A DNA stretch of 63,531 nt, counting the filler. It is 4 parts of 4 records of this genome, joined end to end, with 100 filler letters (N's around TTAATTAATTAA, not from the genome) between each part and the next. Parts side by side here need not be neighbours in the genome. Positions count along the whole stretch, not along the records: positions 15,259 to 45,183 come from DRR723986_830; 3 more parts are not named here. One strand, given 5' to 3'. Under the pieces are notes generated by a model. The model was not told the origin of the DNA, searched no databases, and worked only from the letters and a program-made list of their open reading frames with translations. Positions within the stretch are counted from its first letter, which is position 1, and every line of letters starts with the position of its first letter. Positions 14,025 to 58,399 of this stretch are shown in pieces. A program made the translations under genes and the position numbers.

Positions 14025-14097
14025 GGCCTTGATACCTAAGGCGGCATAGGTCGGCGCGCCCGCCTGCGCTAGGCTGACCCGGCACATGGGAGGAGAC

Positions 14098-15054
14098 ATG
14101 GACGCACCCCTGACACCGCCAGAGGGCGGCCTTCGCCGGCTGTGGGAGCACCTCTCGCACGGTCTCATCGGACATGAGACGCTGATCGAGCGGCTTCTGG
14201 TCTCTTTGCTGGCGGGCGGGCACCTGCTGGTCGAGGGGCCACCGGGCCTTGCCAAGACGCGGGCGGTGAAGTGGCTGGCGCAGGCGGTGGACCTGAGCTT
14301 TGCCCGCATCCAGTGCACGCCGGACCTGATGCCTTCGGACCTGACCGGCACGCCGGTCTGGCGCCCGCAGGACGGGCGGTTCGAGTTCGTGCGCGGCCCG
14401 GTCTTCCACAACCTCGTTCTGGTGGACGAGATCAACCGCGCCCCGCCCAAGGTGCAGTCCGCCCTGCTGGAGGCCATGGCAGAGGGGCAGGTCACGGCCG
14501 GGTCAGAGACCCATGCGCTGCCGCAGCCCTTCCTCGTGGTGGCGACCCAGAACCCCATCGAGCACGACGGCACCTTCCCGCTGCCCGAGGCGCAGCTTGA
14601 CCGCTTCCTTCTGTATACGCTGCTGACCCTGCCCGATGCAGAGACGGAACTGCGCATCCTGAACCTGGTGGAGGCCGAGGCGCAGGCGCCCGCCGCCCTG
14701 CCGGACCGGATGCCGCTGGACGAGCTGCAGGCGCTGCGGGCGCGGGCCATGGCGGTGCATCTGTCGCCCGAGTTGCGCGACTACATCGTGCGGCTGGTCA
14801 TGGCGACCCGCGAAGGCGCGCAGGCGGCAGAGGTCGAACACGCGGTCTCGCCGCGCGGATCGCTGGCGCTGGCTTCGGCGGCCAAGGCGCGGGCCTTCCT
14901 GCGCGGGCGCGACTACGCCCTGCCCGAGGACGTAGAGGCGCTGGCCCCCGACGCGCTGGCCCATCGCATGGTGCTGACGTGGCGCGCGGTGGCCGAGGGC
15001 CGGACCGCGCGGCAGGTGGTCGCCGACATCCTCGACGCGGTGGAACCGCTGTGA
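14098..15054 (+). CDS. MoxR-family AAA+ ATPase (MxaR-like)
   Basis: GHLLVEGPPGLAKT, RIQCTPDLMPSDLTG, DEINRAPPKVQSALLEAM and ATQNPIEHDGTFPLPEAQLDRF. Confidence 0.92.
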   Translation: MDAPLTPPEGGLRRLWEHLSHGLIGHETLIERLLVSLLAGGHLLVEGPPGLAKTRAVKWLAQAVDLSFARIQCTPDLMPSDLTGTPVWRPQDGRFEFVRGPVFHNLVLVDEINRAPPKVQSALLEAMAEGQVTAGSETHALPQPFLVVATQNPIEHDGTFPLPEAQLDRFLLYTLLTLPDAETELRILNLVEAEAQAPAALPDRMPLDELQALRARAMAVHLSPELRDYIVRLVMATREGAQAAEVEHAVSPRGSLALASAAKARAFLRGRDYALPEDVEALAPDALAHRMVLTWRAVAEGRTARQVVADILDAVEPL

Positions 15055-15158: not shown

Positions 15159-15258
15159 NNNNNNNNNNNNNNNNNNNNNNNNNNNNNNNNNNNNNNNNNN
15201 NNTTAATTAATTAANNNNNNNNNNNNNNNNNNNNNNNNNNNNNNNNNNNNNNNNNNNN
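15159..15258. other. Artificial contig spacer
   Basis: N-run, TTAATTAATTAA (stops in all six frames), N-run; 100 nt. Confidence 0.98.
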
Positions 15259-15445
15259 CTGGTCCAGGTTGAATGTTAGTTTACGCAGGCTCTTTCTGTA
15301 TGGGAAATATCGTTTCCGGATGGTCGCATCCGTCCTCGCGTTCCCGCAATTGACCAATACTTGGCCAGTCGTGACAAAAATTCATGTGTTCCCGATGCTC
15401 CCGCAGAAAAACGGGGCGACAGCGGCCGGCAGCGGCAGCAATTGA

Positions 15446-15510
15446 TCGTCCAGGCCGAACTTTCCGGAACGAAAATTCGATTTTCTATTACCACGGGATT
15501 TCCCTATCAT
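15446..15510 (+). promoter_or_regulatory. LysR/NhaR-type operator (TCG-N7-CGA-N18-TCGA) with -10 box TATCAT upstream of purK
   Basis: TCGTCCAGGCCGA...GAAAATTCGA at 15446-15480 and TATCAT at 15505-15510; same geometry as 19641-19704. Confidence 0.6.
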
Positions 15511-15539
15511 ATGGAACTCGCAGTTTCAGGGGTACCGCG

Positions 15540-16769
15540 GTGGTACAAACGACAGACAGGCAAGCGTCCCTACGGGAGCCAGCACAGCGCCTCGGCATCA
15601 TCGGCGGCGGCCAGCTGGGCATGCTGCTGTGCCGGGCCGCCCGCACGCTGGGCCTGCACACCGTGGTCCTCACGCCGGACGACACGGCACCGGCGGTACA
15701 TGAAGCCGACACAGCCCTGATCGCCGCCTACGACGACCCCGAAACCCTCGCCGAATTTATCAACCAGTGCGACGTCATCACCTTCGAATTCGAAGCGGTC
15801 CCCGATACCACCCTGGAGCAACTGGCTGCAGCGGTGCAGCGCCAGGATATTCAGGTACATCCGGAGATTGATACCCTTCGCCTGCTCAAGGACAAGGGCA
15901 CCCAGAAGTGCTGGCTGGAAGAGCAGGGCCTACCCACCCTGCCCTTCAAACTGCTGGATCCGGATACCACAGTCGAAAGCCTGTTAAGCGGCGACCTGCA
16001 ACTGCCACTGGTGCAAAAGACCCGCAGCGGTGGCTACGACGGCAAGGGCGTCCAGCTACTGCCCTCGCAGGAGTCACTCGCCAATCTGTGGCCGGTAGCC
16101 AGCCTGGTGGAACCGCTGCTCGCCGATTGCATCGAGGTTGGCGTGGTCATCGCCAGCAATGGCAGCGGTACCTTGCGCGCCTACCCGCCGGTCTCCATGG
16201 AGTTCGACTGGGAATTTAACTCGGTGCTGACTGTAACCAGCCCGGCGACCGTTGACCCTGATATCCAGACTCGCTGTGCGGACGTCGCACACAATGCCAT
16301 TGCCGCCCTGGGCTCAGCCGGTGTATTCGCGGTGGAACTGTTCGTCACCCCGAAGAACGAGGTCTACATCAACGAGATTTCACCAAGGGTCCACAATTCC
16401 GGACACCTGACCATTGAGGCCTTCAAGCACGACCAGTTCGAACAGCATGTGCGCGCAGTGGCCGGTTTGCCGCTGGCAGCCATCGTGCCCCGGGCGCCGG
16501 CCGCAGTGATGCTTAACCTGCTCTACCGCGACAGCATGGCGCCGGCGATGGCGCCCAGACCCTACTGCGCGGAACTGGATGACCGGGCCCGCACCTGCCT
16601 GCACTGGTACGGCAAGCGTGAGGCGGTCCGCGGACGCAAGATGGGTCATATCACGGCCCTGGGAATTTCTACGGCGGTAGCCGCAGAGCGCGCTGAAGCC
16701 GGCCTGCAGCGGCTGGAATCCGGCGACCTGGGCGACCTGCCGGAACTCAACCGGGCGCTGGCGTCATGA
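15540..16769 (+). CDS. purK: N5-carboxyaminoimidazole ribonucleotide synthase (ATP-grasp, HCO3- dependent)
   Basis: LGIIGGGQLGML, DVITFEFEAV, KTRSGGYDGKG, GVFAVELF, INEISPRVHNSGH, QFEQHVRA and WYGK...GRKMGHIT; GTG start at 15540. Confidence 0.93.
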   Translation: MVQTTDRQASLREPAQRLGIIGGGQLGMLLCRAARTLGLHTVVLTPDDTAPAVHEADTALIAAYDDPETLAEFINQCDVITFEFEAVPDTTLEQLAAAVQRQDIQVHPEIDTLRLLKDKGTQKCWLEEQGLPTLPFKLLDPDTTVESLLSGDLQLPLVQKTRSGGYDGKGVQLLPSQESLANLWPVASLVEPLLADCIEVGVVIASNGSGTLRAYPPVSMEFDWEFNSVLTVTSPATVDPDIQTRCADVAHNAIAALGSAGVFAVELFVTPKNEVYINEISPRVHNSGHLTIEAFKHDQFEQHVRAVAGLPLAAIVPRAPAAVMLNLLYRDSMAPAMAPRPYCAELDDRARTCLHWYGKREAVRGRKMGHITALGISTAVAAERAEAGLQRLESGDLGDLPELNRALAS

Positions 16770-17257
16770 GTGCACAAGTCGGCATCATCATGGGCAGCGA
16801 CTCCGACTTGCCGGTCATGCAAGCGGCGGCGGATATCCTGACCGAGCTCGAGGTGGCCTGGGAACTGACCATAGTGAGTGCCCACAGGACCCCCGACCTG
16901 CTCTACGAGTACGCCGGCGGTGCTGAGGCTCGCGGCCTGCGCGTCATTATTGCCGGCGCTGGCGGTGCCGCGCACCTGCCCGGGATGGCCGCCGCACTGA
17001 CCGTACTGCCGGTGATCGGCGTCCCGGTCAGCGCCACCAAAATGGCCGGGGAAGACGCGCTGTTATCCATCGTGCAGATGCCTGCCGGCGTGCCGGTGGC
17101 AACCGTGGCCATCGACAACGCCACCAATGCCGGTATCCTCGCGGCACAGATGCTGGCAACTGGCGATGACGCCCTGCGCGGCCGACTGGCGACCTACAAG
17201 CTGAGCCTGAAAGACAAGGTGCTGGCCAAGGCCGCCGCACTGGCGCGAACCGACTGA
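16766..17257 (+). CDS. purE: N5-CAIR mutase
   Basis: [31 protein letters not shown] and [20 protein letters not shown] overlap with purK. Confidence 0.96.
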
Positions 17258-17264
17258 CGCACGG

Positions 17265-18263
17265 ATGTTCCTCGAAAATCTCAGCTCGCCGCCGCTACTG
17301 TTCTTCTTCCTTGGTGCGGCGGCGGTTCTGGCACGCTCCGACCTGGACATTCCAGGGCAAGTCGCCAAGTTTCTCTCCCTGTACCTGCTGTTCGCCATCG
17401 GCTTCAAAGGCGGCGTTGCGCTGGCTGAGTCGGACCTCACCAGTACCGTCTGGCTAACCCTGCTGGCGGCGATGGTGATGTCGGCGGCGATACCCTTGTA
17501 CTGCTTCTTCCTGCTGCGGCGGCGCTTTTCCAATGCCGATGCCGCGGCCACTGCCGCCACCTACGGCTCGGTAAGCGCGGTAACCTTCATTACCGCCACC
17601 AGTTACCTCACCACCCAGGGCGTCGACTGGAACGGCTACATGGTCGCGGCCATGGCACTGATGGAATCTCCCGCCATCATCGTCGGCATCCTGCTTTACA
17701 CACGCTATCGGGAGGGTGACGGGGGAAAGTCCGCACGCATCAACTGGTCGGAACTGCTGCGGGAATCCTGCCTCAACGGGTCGGTGTTCCTGATAATCGG
17801 CAGCATGCTCATCGGCTGGTTTACCGGACCCAAGGGCATGGAACAGATAGCGCCGGTCATCAAGGACCTGTTCCTCGGCGCGCTGTGCCTGTTCCTGCTC
17901 GACATGGGGATTGTTGCCGCGCGGCGCCTTGGGGACCTGCGCCGATCCAGTTCGGAGCAAGGCGACAAAGCTTCGCCACTGCCGTACATGGTCGGCTTTG
18001 CTCTTGTCTTCCCTGCACTCAACGCCGCCCTCGCGCTGGCGATCGGGCAACTGCTGGGCCTGGGTGAGGGCGACCTCGTGCTGTTCACGGTATTGGGGGC
18101 CAGCGCCTCCTACATTGCGGTACCGGCGGCCATGCGACTGGCGCTACCAGAGGCCAATCCCAGCACCTACCTGCCCATGTCGCTGGCGATCACCTTCCCC
18201 TTCAACCTGCTGGTGGGGATTCCGGTCTATCATCAACTGGCCAGATGGCTACTGGCTACCTGA
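17265..18263 (+). CDS. sbtA: Sodium-dependent bicarbonate transporter, SbtA family (DUF897)
   Basis: LSLYLLFAIGFKGG, TYGSVSAVTF, MALMESPAII, LFLLDMG, SASYIAVPAAMR and LAITFPFNL; about 10 TM; starts 7 nt after purE. Confidence 0.9.
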   Translation: MFLENLSSPPLLFFFLGAAAVLARSDLDIPGQVAKFLSLYLLFAIGFKGGVALAESDLTSTVWLTLLAAMVMSAAIPLYCFFLLRRRFSNADAAATAATYGSVSAVTFITATSYLTTQGVDWNGYMVAAMALMESPAIIVGILLYTRYREGDGGKSARINWSELLRESCLNGSVFLIIGSMLIGWFTGPKGMEQIAPVIKDLFLGALCLFLLDMGIVAARRLGDLRRSSSEQGDKASPLPYMVGFALVFPALNAALALAIGQLLGLGEGDLVLFTVLGASASYIAVPAAMRLALPEANPSTYLPMSLAITFPFNLLVGIPVYHQLARWLLAT

Positions 18264-18281
18264 GGCACAGGCCTAATAACA

Positions 18282-18578
18282 ATGAGACACTGTAAGCGTA
18301 TCGAAATCGTGATTGAGGAACCCATGGCGCCCCGCCTGATGGAAATCCTGAGGGAGGTTGGTGTTCCGGGATATACCGCAATTTACGATGCCAGCGGAGA
18401 CGGCGACCGCGGGATCCGCCGTGCCGACGAACTGGCCGGCGACTCCAGCAATGCCCTGTTCATCATCGCCTGCGAGGACGATGACCTGGTAATGCGCATC
18501 GCCGAGGCCGTGCGACCCCTGCTGAGCCGCTCCGGCGGACTGTGCCTGGTCAGTGACGCGATGTCACTGATCCACTGA
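18282..18578 (+). CDS. sbtB: PII-like regulator of the SbtB type
   Basis: KRIEIVIE, GVPGYT, SGDGDRG.R and GLCLVSD; directly downstream of sbtA. Confidence 0.85.
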   Translation: MRHCKRIEIVIEEPMAPRLMEILREVGVPGYTAIYDASGDGDRGIRRADELAGDSSNALFIIACEDDDLVMRIAEAVRPLLSRSGGLCLVSDAMSLIH

Positions 18579-18703
18579 CCACGCGCCACCCGGACGGCGG
18601 CTCTGACCCAAGACCACTTCCCAGAACAGTAACTCCAACGGTCCCAAACGAGCATCGCGCAGACCGCCTGCACCCCTTCATCCGTGCATTGATAACCGCC
18701 CGG

Positions 18704-19612
18704 CTACGAGGCCTGGTCAGCCAGCTGCTGGCGGGTCCGCTCGATGATCTCGACGACCGCCGCATGCTTCAGCCGCCGCTCGGGCGATATGGCCACGTAG
18801 TCCTCCCGCAGCTCCGGGATATGGCCGATTGAACGGGCGTGATACATGCGTTCAATCTCCGGGGTAATCGCCGCTGGCGCGGGGAACACCCCGGCCCCTG
18901 CCTGGCCGAAGGCTTTCAGCAGGGCGCTGTCGTCAAACTCGGCGATGATCCGCGGCTGCACGTCGACCCGCTCGAACCAGTCATCGAGCTCCCTGCGCAA
19001 CTGGGTGCCGGGGGTAGGCAGCAGCATCGGTGCCCCGTCCAGGGACTGGGGAAACGATCGGCGATAGCGCGCGGCGTCACCTTCTGCCGAGAAGAAGCTC
19101 ACTGCGCTGCCTCCCATCCGGTGGTTGTAGGCTTTCACATTCATGCCCGCGGGGATGGGCCGATCCGAAATCAGCAGGTCGAGGCGGTGAACCGCAAGGT
19201 CCGCCAGCAGGCTTTCGAGCGAGGCCTCGCTGCACACTACCTTCACCGATTCGGCGGCCGTCAGGGCGGGTTCGAGAATGCGGTAGGCGATCAGCTTGGC
19301 GATGGAATTGACGATGCCCACATTCAGCACCGCGTGCGACCGTCCCTGGTGGCCGCGAACTACCCGGCTAAGTTCAGCACCGAGATGGAAGATGTCGTCC
19401 GCATAATGCTTGACCAGCCGCCCCGCGTCGGTCAGCACCAGGCCACGCCCGGCACGTTGGAACAGGGCTTCGCCAACCGCCTCGTCCAGCAGTTTCAACT
19501 GCCCGCTGATAGTCTGCGGGGTGATGTGCAGCACCTCGGAGGCCCGGGCGATACTGCCCTCATTGGCAACGGTCCAGAAGTAATGCAGATGGTTGTAATT
19601 CAGATGGCGCAT
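18704..19612 (-). CDS. nhaR: LysR-family activator, NhaR subfamily
   Basis: LNYNHLHYFWTVANEGSIARAS..LHITPQTISGQL, LADLAVHRLDL, FPQSLDGAPMLLP, AEFDDSALLKAFGQAG and YVAISPERRLKH. Confidence 0.85.
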   Translation of the reverse strand: MRHLNYNHLHYFWTVANEGSIARASEVLHITPQTISGQLKLLDEAVGEALFQRAGRGLVLTDAGRLVKHYADDIFHLGAELSRVVRGHQGRSHAVLNVGIVNSIAKLIAYRILEPALTAAESVKVVCSEASLESLLADLAVHRLDLLISDRPIPAGMNVKAYNHRMGGSAVSFFSAEGDAARYRRSFPQSLDGAPMLLPTPGTQLRRELDDWFERVDVQPRIIAEFDDSALLKAFGQAGAGVFPAPAAITPEIERMYHARSIGHIPELREDYVAISPERRLKHAAVVEIIERTRQQLADQAS

Positions 19613-19640
19613 GGAGCCTCCGTAATAAGCCGCTGTTACT

Positions 19641-19704
19641 TCGAGATATACGATGATAGGCGGAGAAAAGATCGACTGGACCTTATTATAGCCCGAGCTA
19701 TGCT
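19641..19704 (+). promoter_or_regulatory. LysR/NhaR-type operator (TCG-N7-CGA-N18-TCGA) with -10 box TATGCT in the nhaR/yccA divergent region
   Basis: TCGAGATATACGA (T-N11-A)...GAAAAGATCGA at 19641-19675 and TATGCT at 19699-19704. Confidence 0.65.
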
Positions 19705-19739
19705 AGCGCCGACCAGTACACCTCATGGAGGCATCCGCA

Positions 19740-20444
19740 ATGCACCTCGACAAACCACGCGCCGTGGCGACCACGGCAGATTTCCGCAGCGCTGATGCAA
19801 CAGCACTTGGCCGCGACGCCGGTGCCCAGCAGGTTTTGCGCAACACCTACCGCCTGCTGGCGATGACCCTGGCGTTCAGCGCCCTGATTGCGGGCATGAG
19901 CGCCGCGTTGAAGCTGCCCCACCCCGGCCTGCTGCTGACCCTGGGGGGCTATTTCGGCCTGTTGTTCCTGACCGCAAAATTGCGCAACAGCGCCTGGGGA
20001 TTGCTCAGCGTCTTCGCCCTGACCGGCTTCATGGGTTACACCCTGGGACCGCTGATTGCCGCCTACCTGGCCATGCCCGGCGGCTCGAACATCGTCGCCA
20101 CCGCAATGGGTACCACGGCCATCGTCTTCACTGGACTGTCCTGGTTTGCCAACAGCGGACTGGCACCGGACGTACGGCGCTACGGTAACTTCCTGATGAT
20201 CGGCATCCTGACCGCCTTCTGCCTGGGGCTCGCGGCCTACTTCTTCGCCATGCCGGCCCTGTCGCTCGCGGTCTCGGGACTGTTCGTGCTGCTGATGTCC
20301 GGGCTGATCCTGTACCAGACCCAGGACATCATCAACGGCGGCGAGCGTAACTACATCATGGCGACCGTGACCCTGTTCGTCGCCATCTACAACCTGTTTG
20401 CCAGCTTGCTGCAGCTGCTCGGCTTCTTCGGCGGCGAGGAGTAA
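19740..20444 (+). CDS. yccA: Bax inhibitor-1/YccA family membrane protein
   Basis: VLRNTYRLLAMTL, FALTGFMGYTLGP and IINGGERNYIMATVTLFVAIYNLF; GGAGG RBS. Confidence 0.9.
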   Translation: MHLDKPRAVATTADFRSADATALGRDAGAQQVLRNTYRLLAMTLAFSALIAGMSAALKLPHPGLLLTLGGYFGLLFLTAKLRNSAWGLLSVFALTGFMGYTLGPLIAAYLAMPGGSNIVATAMGTTAIVFTGLSWFANSGLAPDVRRYGNFLMIGILTAFCLGLAAYFFAMPALSLAVSGLFVLLMSGLILYQTQDIINGGERNYIMATVTLFVAIYNLFASLLQLLGFFGGEE

Positions 20445-20517
20445 CCGGCCTCGCCTGACGCGACGTTGCGCTAGTGCTAAAGTTATCAAGACCAAACCAC
20501 ACCCAAAGGAGAACTGA

Positions 20518-21231
20518 ATGTTGACCCTGCCCCGATCCATCCTGGCCGCAGCGGCATTTGCCGCCGCCGTCGCCCTGCCCATGACTGCCTCGGCAGACAA
20601 CCATGCCGGCGTGCAAACCCTGGCATCACAGTCAGAGCTCACGCCCGCCGCCGCCCTGGGCCTGCTCAAGGCCGGCAACGAGCGCTTCCTCAGCGGCACC
20701 ATGGCGGAACGCGACCTCAAAGCCCAGGTCGCGGCAACGGCGGGCGGCCAGTACCCGCACTCCATCGTATTGAGCTGTATCGACTCGCGGGTACCGCCGG
20801 AGCTGGTGTTCGACCAGGGCATCGGCGACATCTTTTCCCCCCGAGTAGCCGGTAACTTCGTCGATTCGGAATTGCTGGGCAGCATGGAGTTTGCCGCCGC
20901 CGTGGCCGGCTCCAAAGCCCTGGTGGTCCTTGGCCACACCGAGTGCGGCGCGGTTAAAGGTGCCTGCGACGACGTCAAGCTCGGCAACCTGACCAGCACC
21001 CTGAGCTATATCAAGCCCGCCGTGGACGCGGTGCAGGGCTTTGATGGCGAACGCAACTCCGGCAACAAGGCCTTCGTCGACGAGGTAACCCACGAAAACG
21101 TGCGTCAGACCGTCGACAACATCCTCAGCCAGAGCCCGGTACTCGCCGAACTGGTTAGCCGCGGCATGTTGGTCGTAGTTGGCGCTGTCTATGACGTCAG
21201 CACCGGCAAAGTAACCTTTATGGAAAGCTAA
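20518..21231 (+). CDS. Beta-class carbonic anhydrase with Sec-type signal peptide
   Basis: LKAGNERF, GQYP, Zn ligands C(IDSRV) and H(TEC)GAV, FDQGIGD, RVAGN and GAVYDVSTGKV; N-terminal MLTLPRSILAAAAFAAAVALPMTASA; AAGGAG RBS. Confidence 0.92.
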   Translation: MLTLPRSILAAAAFAAAVALPMTASADNHAGVQTLASQSELTPAAALGLLKAGNERFLSGTMAERDLKAQVAATAGGQYPHSIVLSCIDSRVPPELVFDQGIGDIFSPRVAGNFVDSELLGSMEFAAAVAGSKALVVLGHTECGAVKGACDDVKLGNLTSTLSYIKPAVDAVQGFDGERNSGNKAFVDEVTHENVRQTVDNILSQSPVLAELVSRGMLVVVGAVYDVSTGKVTFMES

Positions 21232-21243
21232 GACCGGTGCACC

Positions 21244-21273
21244 CCGGGGGCGGCGCAACGCCCCCGGACTTTT
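21244..21273 (+). terminator. Rho-independent terminator after the carbonic anhydrase gene
   Basis: CCGGGGGCG-gcgcaa-CGCCCCCGG stem-loop followed by ACTTTT. Confidence 0.7.
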
Positions 21274-21371
21274 CCCCCTGCTCCTGCGAAGCTGACCCCG
21301 CCAGCAACACCACACTGGCTAGGCTTCCCAGCCTGACTTAGAATGCGCCGCTGTCGCTTCAGGCCCCAACC

Positions 21372-23267
21372 ATGTCATTGCTCCGCCTAGATTCTGTCGA
21401 ACTGCACTACGGCACCCATGTCCTGCTGGACCAGGTCAGCCTCTCCATTGCCGCCGGCGACCGCCTCGGTCTGCTGGGACGCAACGGCGCCGGCAAGACC
21501 AGTCTGTTGAAGCTGCTCGCTGGCGACACCCAGCCCGACAGTGGTGAACGCTGGTTGCGCCCCGGTACCCGAATCGCCCGCCTGGAACAGGAACTGCCGG
21601 TTGCCGATGACACGACGGTTTACGATGCGGTGGCCTCCGGGCTGGCGGAAACCGGCGCGCTGATCAGCGCCTATCATCACCTGGCCCAGCAGGGCGCCGA
21701 TGCGGATATGGACGCCCTGGCGCGAGTCCAGCAACAGTTGGAAGACCGAGACGGATGGCGCCTGCAGCAGCGGGTGGAGACCACACTCAGCCAGTTACAG
21801 CTGCCCGCGGACGAACCGCTGGCGAGCCTGTCCGGCGGCTGGCGGCGGCGGGTTGCCCTGGGCCGCGCGCTGGTGGCCGAGCCGGACATCCTGTTGCTCG
21901 ACGAGCCCACCAACCATCTGGACATCCCGGCCATCGAATGGCTGGAAGACCAGTTACGCCAGTTCCCCGGCGCCCTGGTGCTGATTACCCACGACCGGCG
22001 CTTCCTGCAGAACGTGGTCACCAGCATCGCCGAGCTCGACCGGGGGCACCTGAGCCTGTGGCAGGGTGACTACGCCGGCTTCCTGCGCCACCGCGAGCAG
22101 GAACTCGCCGCGGAGGAACGGGCGAACGAGCTGTTCGACAAGAAGCTGGCCCAGGAGGAAACCTGGATCCGGCAGGGGATCAAGGCCCGGCGGACCCGCA
22201 ATGAGGGCCGGGTCCGGGCGCTGGAGGCGATGCGCCGAGAGCGCGCCGCGCGCCGTGAGCGCACCGGTGAGGCCGGCTTCGCCATCGAGGAGGCCAACCG
22301 CTCGGGCAAAATCGTGGCAGAGCTGGAACACGTCAACAAGGCCTTCGGCAGTACGGTGATCGCCCGGGACTTTTCCACCATCATCCAGCGCGGCGACCGG
22401 CTGGGCATCGTTGGACCCAACGGTGCCGGCAAATCAACCCTGGTGCGGTTGTTACTGGGCGAACTCACAGCCGACAGCGGCACCGTTACCCTTGGCAGCA
22501 AGCTGGAAGTGGCCTACTCCGACCAGCTGCGGGAGCAGCTCGACCCGGAGCGCAACCTGATCGACAACGTGTGCGGCGGCCAGGAGTTCATCGAGCTCAA
22601 CGGCAGGCGGCGGCACGCCATCTCCTACCTCGGTGACTTCCTGTTTTCCCCGGAGCGGGTGCGAACGCCGGTGAAGGCCCTGTCAGGCGGAGAGCGCAAT
22701 CGCGCGGTGCTGGCCAAGCTGTTCAGCAAACCGGCCAACCTGGTGGTGCTGGACGAACCCACCAACGACCTCGACATCGAGACCCTGGAACTGCTGGAGG
22801 AAATCCTGCTGGACTTCAAGGGGACCGTGATCCTGGTCAGCCACGACCGTGACTTCATGGACCACGTGGTAACCGGCCTGCTGGTACTCGCCGGCGACGG
22901 CGAGATCGAAGAACAGGCCGGCGGCTACAGCGACTGGGAAGCCCGGGGCGGGCGGCTCGGCACGTCGCAGGCAATCGGTGGCGAGAAAAGCGCTGCGCCG
23001 GATCCCGCGCCCGCAGCCCCTGAAAAAACCGCCGAGCCGGTGTCGCGCAAGCGCAAACTATCCTATAAGGACCAGCGGGAACTGGATGCCCTACCCGACC
23101 TGGTGGACAGCCTGGAGCAGCGCCAGACAGCGCTGGAACAGCTGATAGCCGCGCCGGCTTTCTACCAGCAGGACCACAGTGAGGTCGAAAGGACGCTGGC
23201 GGAGCTCACGACAGTGCAGGCCGAACTGGAACGCGCCCTGGAACGCTGGACCGAGCTGGAAGACTGA
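21372..23267 (+). CDS. uup: ABC-F family ATPase Uup
   Basis: Two ABC domains; EETWIRQGIKARRTRNEGRVRAL linker; C-terminal KLSYKDQRELDALP...LERWTELE. Confidence 0.93.
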   Translation: MSLLRLDSVELHYGTHVLLDQVSLSIAAGDRLGLLGRNGAGKTSLLKLLAGDTQPDSGERWLRPGTRIARLEQELPVADDTTVYDAVASGLAETGALISAYHHLAQQGADADMDALARVQQQLEDRDGWRLQQRVETTLSQLQLPADEPLASLSGGWRRRVALGRALVAEPDILLLDEPTNHLDIPAIEWLEDQLRQFPGALVLITHDRRFLQNVVTSIAELDRGHLSLWQGDYAGFLRHREQELAAEERANELFDKKLAQEETWIRQGIKARRTRNEGRVRALEAMRRERAARRERTGEAGFAIEEANRSGKIVAELEHVNKAFGSTVIARDFSTIIQRGDRLGIVGPNGAGKSTLVRLLLGELTADSGTVTLGSKLEVAYSDQLREQLDPERNLIDNVCGGQEFIELNGRRRHAISYLGDFLFSPERVRTPVKALSGGERNRAVLAKLFSKPANLVVLDEPTNDLDIETLELLEEILLDFKGTVILVSHDRDFMDHVVTGLLVLAGDGEIEEQAGGYSDWEARGGRLGTSQAIGGEKSAAPDPAPAAPEKTAEPVSRKRKLSYKDQRELDALPDLVDSLEQRQTALEQLIAAPAFYQQDHSEVERTLAELTTVQAELERALERWTELED

Positions 23268-45183: not shown

Positions 45184-45283
45184 NNNNNNNNNNNNNNNNN
45201 NNNNNNNNNNNNNNNNNNNNNNNNNNNTTAATTAATTAANNNNNNNNNNNNNNNNNNNNNNNNNNNNNNNNNNNNNNNNNNNN
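45184..45283. other. Artificial contig spacer
   Basis: N-run, TTAATTAATTAA, N-run. Confidence 0.98.
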
Positions 45284-58299: not shown

Positions 58300-58399
58300 N
58301 NNNNNNNNNNNNNNNNNNNNNNNNNNNNNNNNNNNNNNNNNNNTTAATTAATTAANNNNNNNNNNNNNNNNNNNNNNNNNNNNNNNNNNNNNNNNNNNN
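58300..58399. other. Artificial contig spacer
   Basis: N-run, TTAATTAATTAA, N-run. Confidence 0.98.

Follow-up and report, generated by a model that had tools for sequence, protein, structure and literature searches.

A conserved candidate NhaR operator upstream of purK-purE-sbtA-sbtB and of yccA-carbonic anhydrase

The locus and its two operator-like elements

The DNA analysed here, referred to as the window, is a stretch of 63,531 nucleotides joined from several contigs, and the features of interest are two 35-bp elements in it that both read TCG-N7-CGA-N18-TCGA. The first element (site 1) lies upstream of purK, which is followed by purE and by genes for an SbtA-like permease and an SbtB-like partner protein. 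The second element (site 2) lies between yccA and the divergently oriented gene for a LysR-type regulator of the NhaR family, with a gene for a beta-class carbonic anhydrase downstream of yccA (Table 1). A sequence-only reading of the window had proposed that the regulator acts on both flanking units through these elements. Based on the comparisons with other genomes described below, we consider it likely that both 35-bp elements are operators of the NhaR orthologue, which would activate purK-purE-sbtA-sbtB from site 1 and yccA, probably together with the carbonic anhydrase gene, from site 2.

Inspection of the letters places the two 35-mers on the + strand at 15446-15480 and 19641-19675, where the sequence-only reading had located them, and these are the only two matches to the pattern on either strand of the window. 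The -10-like hexamers TATCAT and TATGCT that it had assigned to the two sites are also real, with gaps of 24 and 23 nt from the respective TCGA. Site 1 lies 60 nt ahead of the probable purK start, and the dyad of site 2 stands 29 nt upstream of the regulator ATG. Shuffling of the window gives an expectation of 0.24 pattern matches and at least two matches in 3 of 100 shuffles, a test that is post hoc because the pattern was taken from these same two sites. Beyond the 10 fixed bases the sites are identical at just 6 of 25 positions, so the window alone could not settle whether the shared pattern is due to chance.

When the whole window is scored with a matrix derived from other genomes, site 2 (38.0) and site 1 (27.4) come far ahead of the rest, and no further site exceeds 10.2. 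This ranking is not independent, as it rests largely on the 10 fixed bases and the training sites were chosen by the same pattern. The independent part of the score, from the non-fixed bases, is 9.0 for site 1, compared to a 99th percentile of -5.1 at random positions of the window. The consensus around TCGA over 61 related sites (see below) is aaaatTCGA.Tt, and the corresponding letters of site 1 are GAAAATTCGATT. A dyad at 20451-20463, immediately 3' of the yccA stop and ahead of the carbonic anhydrase gene, was considered as a third operator and rejected, as it lacks a TCGA at +18 and its matrix score is sub-threshold. Bare copies of TCG-N7-CGA are in excess in the window as a whole (57 copies compared to 27.6 expected, a number reached in 0 of 100 shuffles); these copies are mostly intragenic, and their excess possibly stems from codon or dinucleotide structure.

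Table 1. Operator features and flanking genes, numbered along the window
Feature	Position	Strand	Remarks
Site 1 dyad TCG-N7-CGA (T-N11-A box); candidate high-affinity site for the regulator at the purK promoter	15446..15458	+	Centre at about -65 from the inferred start
Site 1 TCGA half-site; putative activation site next to a weak -35	15477..15480	+	Pattern match
-10-like hexamer TATCAT	15505..15510	+	24 nt 3' of the site 1 TCGA
purK, N5-carboxyaminoimidazole ribonucleotide synthase	15540..16769	+	Probable GTG start; Pfam ATP-grasp, preATP-grasp, PurK_C
purE, N5-CAIR mutase	16766..17257	+	PF00731, 211.9 bits; TIGR01162, 208.3 bits (cutoff 149.6)
SbtA-like permease, Na+-dependent bicarbonate transporter superfamily	17265..18263	+	PF05982, 395.4 bits
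P-II-like small protein, SbtB-like permease partner	18282..18578	+	PF00543, 43.9 bits
LysR-type regulator, NhaR orthologue	18704..19612	-	NF008284; E. coli NhaR alignment
Site 2 dyad TCG-N7-CGA	19641..19653	+	About -64 from the inferred yccA start; conserved beside the regulator gene in relatives
Site 2 TCGA half-site	19672..19675	+	Followed by -35-like TGGACC
-10-like hexamer TATGCT	19699..19704	+	23 nt 3' of the site 2 TCGA
yccA, Bax inhibitor-1 family membrane protein	19740..20444	+	ATG 19740 behind GGAGG; PF01027, 134.7 bits
Beta-class carbonic anhydrase	20518..21231	+	PF00484, 138.6 bits; NF011765, 259 bits (cutoff 221)

The position of site 1 relative to coding sequence depends on the start of purK. 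The longest purK open reading frame (ORF) begins with ATG at 15384, and the Pfam pre-ATP-grasp match begins only at its residue 69. When residues are counted from the GTG, the orthologue alignments of 19 of the 21 purK hits begin between residues 5 and 31, and the other two, which are partial hits, begin at residues 106 and 123. Because of the position of the Pfam match and these alignment starts, the gene most likely begins at GTG 15540 and not at ATG 15384, which would place site 1 in non-coding DNA. Scanning of 15259-19800 against Rfam (E up to 1) returned no RNA family, arguing that no known riboswitch leader precedes purK. Similarly, no PurR site is evident in 15259-15545, where the best match has 7 mismatches to a 16-bp PurR-box consensus.

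The layout of purK-purE-sbtA-sbtB is that of an operon, since purE begins within purK and shares its last 4 nt, 7 nt separate purE from the SbtA-like gene, and 18 nt separate this gene from the one for the P-II-like protein. An Sbt_1 permease followed by a P-II-like protein is the arrangement of an SbtA/SbtB pair. The permease matched no NCBIfam model, and bicarbonate transport is predicted for it from the name of its family. The purK product scores 318.8 bits with the NCBIfam PurK models, slightly under the cutoff of 326, and the yccA product scores 195.7 bits with the NCBIfam YccA model, under the cutoff of 353. The carbonic anhydrase gene is separated from yccA by 73 nt in which the matrix scan found no full operator, and the two genes are probably co-transcribed. 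Searches with tblastn indicate that the window is without nhaA, an HPF-like gene, or a second purK or purE. The contig that carries the cluster starts at 15259, and the joins of the window consist of runs of N around a 12-base linker with stops in all frames (15159-15258, 45228-45239, 58344-58355); genes that flank a join are therefore not genomic neighbours. The gene for a MoxR-type AAA+ ATPase (14086-15054), which ends the previous contig, is unrelated to the operators.

Conservation of the element in other species

Conservation of the element has been probed using an alignment of the regulator with 23 relatives, which served to fetch 80 loci of other species (one per species, 7 kb on each side, 1.02 Mb in all). 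The pattern of the sequence-only reading was applied to these loci unchanged and gave 61 exact matches, an 11-fold enrichment over 30 block-wise dinucleotide shuffles, which averaged 5.4 matches and never gave more than 11. In the 300 nt ahead of the regulator gene the pattern is exact in 25 loci and present with one mismatch in 20 more, for a total of 45 of the 79 usable loci, and it stands 4-90 nt from the regulator start whichever gene is divergent. The arms of the dyad are 100% kept in the 61 related sites by construction, and the spacer is AT-rich there.

An independent view of purK is offered by 10 loci in which the purK upstream region (300 nt searched) is not shared with the regulator gene. 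The pattern is exact in three of these regions (L002, L017, L034), has one mismatch in another (L046), and has two mismatches in four (L010, L015, L027, L069). When the same regions were shuffled, 0 of 2000 shuffles contained an exact match, 14 a match with at most one mismatch, and 209 a match with at most two. The element was also observed 5' of purK in L076 (exact) and L049 (one mismatch). Comparison of the 10 purK sites with each other gives a pairwise identity of 84% at the ten fixed positions, compared to 38% at the other 25 positions and 28% in the 30-nt flank, indicating that conservation is confined to the motif.

Target-oriented matches were also counted upstream of the first gene of each unit. 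A match with at most one mismatch precedes 10 of 15 units led by yccA, all 3 units led by carbonic anhydrase, and 6 of 17 units led by purK, the last number rising to 13 of 17 when two mismatches are allowed. The motif is thus conserved in the orthologous promoters of purK, yccA and carbonic anhydrase, and the lack of conservation on which the sequence-only reading could have foundered did not occur. As judged from these sequence comparisons, the match of both window sites is not chance.

Promoter layout, regulator identity and competing explanations

The layout of the promoters was compared over 34 hand-chosen sites anchored on the motif (10 purK, 10 yccA, 4 carbonic anhydrase, 3 nhaA, and 7 HPF-like), taking as the -10 element the best hexamer whose second base is A and sixth base is T, at gaps of 17-28 nt. 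A -10-like hexamer lies 23-24 nt past TCGA in 29 of the 34 sites, which represent five gene families; this gap is seen at 10/10 purK-upstream and 9/10 yccA-upstream sites. TCGA begins 31 bp past the start of the dyad, and in relatives it is followed directly by the -35-like letters atagacc or ctggacc (yccA) or attgtcgg (purK). Assuming a transcription start about 7 nt beyond the -10-like hexamer, the dyads would be centred at about -65 (site 1) and -64 (site 2) and TCGA would lie at about -38. In three nhaA promoters (L019 264-340, L026 5143-5220, L038 5481-5560) TCGA opens a second TCG-N7-CGA/CGG dyad, 31 bp on, suggesting that the complete operator is about 44 bp because TCGA starts a second full or near-full dyad there. 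The right arm of this second dyad is weakly kept over the 61 sites (C 52%, G 40%, A 36%), which would fit an activation site of low symmetry.

Available parts of a review of LysR-type transcriptional regulators (LTTR) describe a regulatory site of symmetric T-N11-A form, activation sites of lower symmetry overlapping the -35 region, and a sliding-dimer model. With start sites placed as above, the predicted layout at the window's promoters is this textbook arrangement, in which a symmetric regulatory site is paired with a weaker site for activation. The window sites are the same in kind as those of generic LysR promoters such as that of BenM (ATAC-N7-GTAT), and the sequence of the arms alone differs (TCG/CGA). 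Terminator-like hits in 15259-21400 are no more frequent than in shuffles. A perfect TATAAT is present on the minus strand at 19690-19685, in the interval from the TCGA half-site to the yccA -10; it was not seen in the relatives inspected by eye. This hexamer may be the -10 of the regulator gene, in which case the promoters of the regulator gene and of yccA may overlap in back-to-back orientation, with site 2 a short way downstream of the regulator start.

The NhaR-like label that the regulator had been given from sequence is upheld by comparison with the NCBI NhaR equivalog model NF008284 (253.7 bits, cutoff 219, residues 1-297). The protein shares 36% identity with E. coli NhaR over 290 aa, and the helix-turn-helix is nearly unchanged. 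Its closest relatives carry the names Halioglobus or Halieaceae, which suggests that the host organism probably belongs to the Halieaceae. In the 80 loci, nhaA is beside the regulator in 14 and carbon genes are beside it in 39, with both kinds present in 4. The possibility that carbon-gene-linked regulators form a paralogous clade apart from nhaA-linked ones was rejected, as a FastTree tree of the 80 regulators, the window's, and that of E. coli (FastTree support only, E. coli outgroup on a long branch) interleaves the two types. Together with the 4 loci that have both neighbours, this result points to one NhaR family and not to a specialised paralogue. The window regulator falls in a well-supported group of 7, all members of which neighbour carbon genes. 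Some genomes do carry NhaR paralogues, as L037 and L057 lie on one Woeseiaceae chromosome (OZ246981.1) with two NhaR-like genes about 13 kb apart.

The classical, canonical target of NhaR is nhaA. In E. coli K-12 an exact TCG-N7-CGA dyad was found 91 nt before the nhaA start and another upstream of pgaA, and a copy with one mismatch lies between bdm and osmC. The protein family and the dyad are the same for E. coli NhaR, with its operators at nhaA, pgaABCD and osmC, and for the window regulator. Consistent with this likeness, the PRODORIC NhaR matrix and the 13-mer T-N11-A consensus both begin with TCG/TCg in the available part of PMC6307784. Differences are also apparent. The partner of the E. 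coli nhaA dyad 18 nt downstream is TCTG, whereas the window sites have TCGA; nhaR follows nhaA in E. coli, whereas the window's regulator gene is divergent from yccA; and the targets predicted here are absent from the E. coli NhaR targets given in the accessible portions of PMC6307784 and PMC5596200. The Shewanella NhaR regulog, derived by comparative genomics (Rodionov et al. 2011), has a 33-bp motif, similar in length to the 35-bp geometry of the window, and its regulon consists only of nhaA-SO1337-nhaR, as far as the available text of PMC3223726 goes. No passage on NhaR binding, a consensus or a motif was found in the accessible text of a bioRxiv preprint on Vibrio NhaR.

These features suggest a mechanism of the sliding-dimer type. 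First, a tetramer of the regulator would bind the dyad and the TCGA site at each promoter. On receipt of the signal, which is probably Na+ by analogy with E. coli NhaR, the tetramer would change position at the weak site and bring in RNA polymerase. At site 1 this would switch on purK-purE-sbtA-sbtB, while at site 2 it would switch on yccA, with the carbonic anhydrase gene probably read through the 73-nt gap. Additionally, site 2 probably limits expression of the regulator itself, because its dyad lies so close to the start codon of that gene. Na+ (or Li+) is the effector given for E. coli NhaR in the table of the LTTR review, in the part available.

The alternative that survives best is that the NhaR orthologue binds both sites but represses, or that it senses inorganic carbon or pH instead of Na+. 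The predicted targets are indeed centred on bicarbonate (PurK, which uses it, the SbtA-like permease with its P-II partner, and carbonic anhydrase), and site 2 would lie downstream of the possible regulator-gene -10 on the minus strand, a position that fits repression of that gene. The accessible part of the LTTR review likewise contains LysR-type regulators of the cyanobacterial CO2-concentrating mechanism that respond to metabolites, although a dyad near -65 with a half-site by a weak -35 is, in the same source, the usual layout of an activator. Moreover, nhaA, which is induced by Na+ in E. coli, bears the same operator in relatives, and nhaA-linked and carbon-linked regulators interleave in one family with both neighbours in 4 loci. 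On balance, repression or a different signal appears rather unlikely, and activation of both units by the NhaR orthologue is preferred.

Several results weigh against assigning both elements to an activating NhaR. About 5 of the 61 exact matches are expected by chance, and the co-occurrence of regulator and motif is partly by design, as the loci were chosen via the regulator gene. Among the independent purK upstream regions, the class with two mismatches is individually at chance level (10.5% of shuffles), the match of L015 lies at a different distance, and two further regions (L023, L033) have three mismatches; two to three of the ten are without a convincing site. A match with at most one mismatch precedes just 1 of 6 units led by sbtA. 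Site 1 itself falls in the lowest quarter of the 61 sites by non-fixed score (9.0, with a lower quartile of 10.4 and a median of 22.8), and its dyad spacer (TCCAGGC) is GC-rich where the consensus is AT-rich. The comparison is further limited by the start of the contig, which leaves only 281 nt 5' of purK. Neither site yielded a promoter in a strict sigma-70 scan of 15259-21400, the starts used here being taken from the hexamers, and the E. coli dyads are equated with NhaR sites by sequence match. The sequences directly show the motif, how it is conserved and placed, and which family the protein belongs to. Binding, activation as opposed to repression, the start sites, the effector, and co-transcription of carbonic anhydrase are all points that we infer.

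Some of these observations would suit an explanation in which site 2 alone is a true operator and site 1 is a chance look-alike: the atypical spacer and low-quartile score of site 1, the 6 of 25 non-fixed positions common to both window sites, and the two or more matches in 3 of 100 window shuffles all lean that way. This explanation is nevertheless quite improbable, given that shuffled purK upstreams yielded no exact match in 2000, that purK of other species has the same element with the same gap to the -10 box, that site 1 fits the family consensus beyond the fixed bases, and that purK is directly divergent from the regulator gene in 7 loci. Equally hard to credit is a real, conserved operator recognised by a DNA-binding protein other than the adjacent LysR/NhaR regulator, for although the pairing of regulator and operator is sequence-based and partly built in through selection of the loci via the LysR gene, the T-N11-A form and two-site spacing are typical of LysR-type regulators (LTTR review, available part), the motif keeps to 4-90 nt from the regulator start irrespective of the divergent gene and precedes nhaA in relatives, and the same dyad is found upstream of two E. 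coli NhaR targets.

Predicted breadth of the regulon and a possible role in bicarbonate supply

The likely breadth of the regulon was examined from 55 ORFs located downstream of exact sites in the related loci and classed by Pfam. These ORFs encode the regulator itself (17), Ribosomal_S30AE (HPF-like) proteins (7), PurK (4), Bax1-I proteins (yccA, 4), carbonic anhydrase (3), and NhaA (3), with exact operators preceding the NhaA antiporter genes in L019, L026 and L038; 13 ORFs are without a Pfam match. The remaining families, each represented by a single ORF, are TerC, BON, peptidase M48, CcmE, isocitrate dehydrogenase, baeRF, an FAD-dependent oxidoreductase, and an AcrB-family transporter. The exact sites before the TerC, BON, M48, CcmE, baeRF and isocitrate dehydrogenase ORFs lie at L072 3246-3280, L079 1384-1418 and 4448-4482, L078 6987-7021, L013 89-123, and L018 8272-8306, and some of them may be among the approximately 5 chance hits. 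Small Ribosomal_S30AE (HPF/RaiA-like) genes stand beside the NhaR gene in 26 of the 80 loci (e.g., L026 4676-5035, L032 6518-6877, L074 6536-6877). Because HPF-like genes adjoin the NhaR gene, and seven lie just past an exact operator, the pattern suggests that ribosome hibernation is part of the NhaR regulon.

Gene order in relatives also keeps the parts of the cluster together, which agrees with the earlier proposal that it forms one system. The order purK-purE-sbtA-sbtB is kept in 10 of 80 loci (L002, L003, L010, L013, L027, L033, L034, L044, L046, L073), and carbonic anhydrase is divergent from the regulator in L004 and L010, as purK is in the 7 loci noted above. The two units of the window are fused in L013 (yccA-purK-purE-sbtA-sbtB, in one direction) and in L006 (yccA-sbtA-sbtB). 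The sequence-only reading had gone further and described a six-gene regulon. While conservation of the operator upstream of both units in relatives sustains the membership of these genes, the closed number does not hold, as the operator also precedes nhaA, HPF-like and other genes. Since the regulon of relatives includes nhaA and HPF-like genes, it is better described as a stress regulon with a bicarbonate branch than as a closed six-gene system.

LysR-type control of an SbtA permease and its P-II partner is also found in cyanobacteria, through CcmR/NdhR and CmpR, and sbtA/sbtB are among the NdhR/CcmR targets. In contrast to the window regulator, CcmR/NdhR belongs to a different LysR subfamily, has metabolite effectors, and serves autotrophic carbon fixation, whereas here a purine operon in a probable heterotroph would be controlled. 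The table of the LTTR review, in its available part, gives NdhR/CcmR for the CO2-concentrating mechanism with 2-phosphoglycolate and 2-oxoglutarate as effectors. According to the accessible portion of PMC10880623, PurK uses bicarbonate and purK mutants need high CO2. A full-text search, which ran without subscription journals or RegPrecise, returned no paper linking NhaR to bicarbonate transport, carbonic anhydrase or purK within the text it could reach. Likewise, no paper describing a purK-purE-sbtA-sbtB operon was found, and in its available passages the relevant paper handles purK and SbtA separately. A LysR-type NhaR operator of standard geometry is already known in kind; what appears to be new are the predicted targets, purK-purE-sbtA-sbtB and yccA-carbonic anhydrase.

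The functional logic of this bicarbonate-centred target set is plausible. Permeases of the SbtA type are named as Na+-dependent bicarbonate importers, carbonic anhydrase converts CO2 to bicarbonate and back, and NhaA expels the Na+ that Na+-coupled bicarbonate import would bring in. As a tentative proposal, which we regard as possible and no stronger than that, marine Halieaceae, Woeseiaceae and related gammaproteobacteria may have recruited NhaR, the sodium-stress regulator, to control a set of genes that supplies bicarbonate for heterotrophic carboxylation. Such a module would comprise a Na+-coupled SbtA/SbtB importer in one operon with PurK-PurE, the step of purine synthesis that consumes bicarbonate, together with a membrane protein of the Bax-inhibitor type and a carbonic anhydrase.

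The candidate operator described here provides NhaR orthologues of abundant marine sediment and coastal bacteria with a well-defined, conserved site of 35-44 bp, and it extends the predicted NhaR regulon past Na+/H+ antiport to bicarbonate uptake, carbonic anhydrase, and the step of purine synthesis that depends on bicarbonate. In its own right, the conserved purK-purE-sbtA-sbtB operon is of interest for understanding how heterotrophs secure inorganic carbon. If the proposed role of NhaR is correct, the sodium cycle (NhaA) and the acquisition of inorganic carbon would be co-regulated as one physiological unit, which would in effect give non-autotrophs a small carbon-concentrating device.

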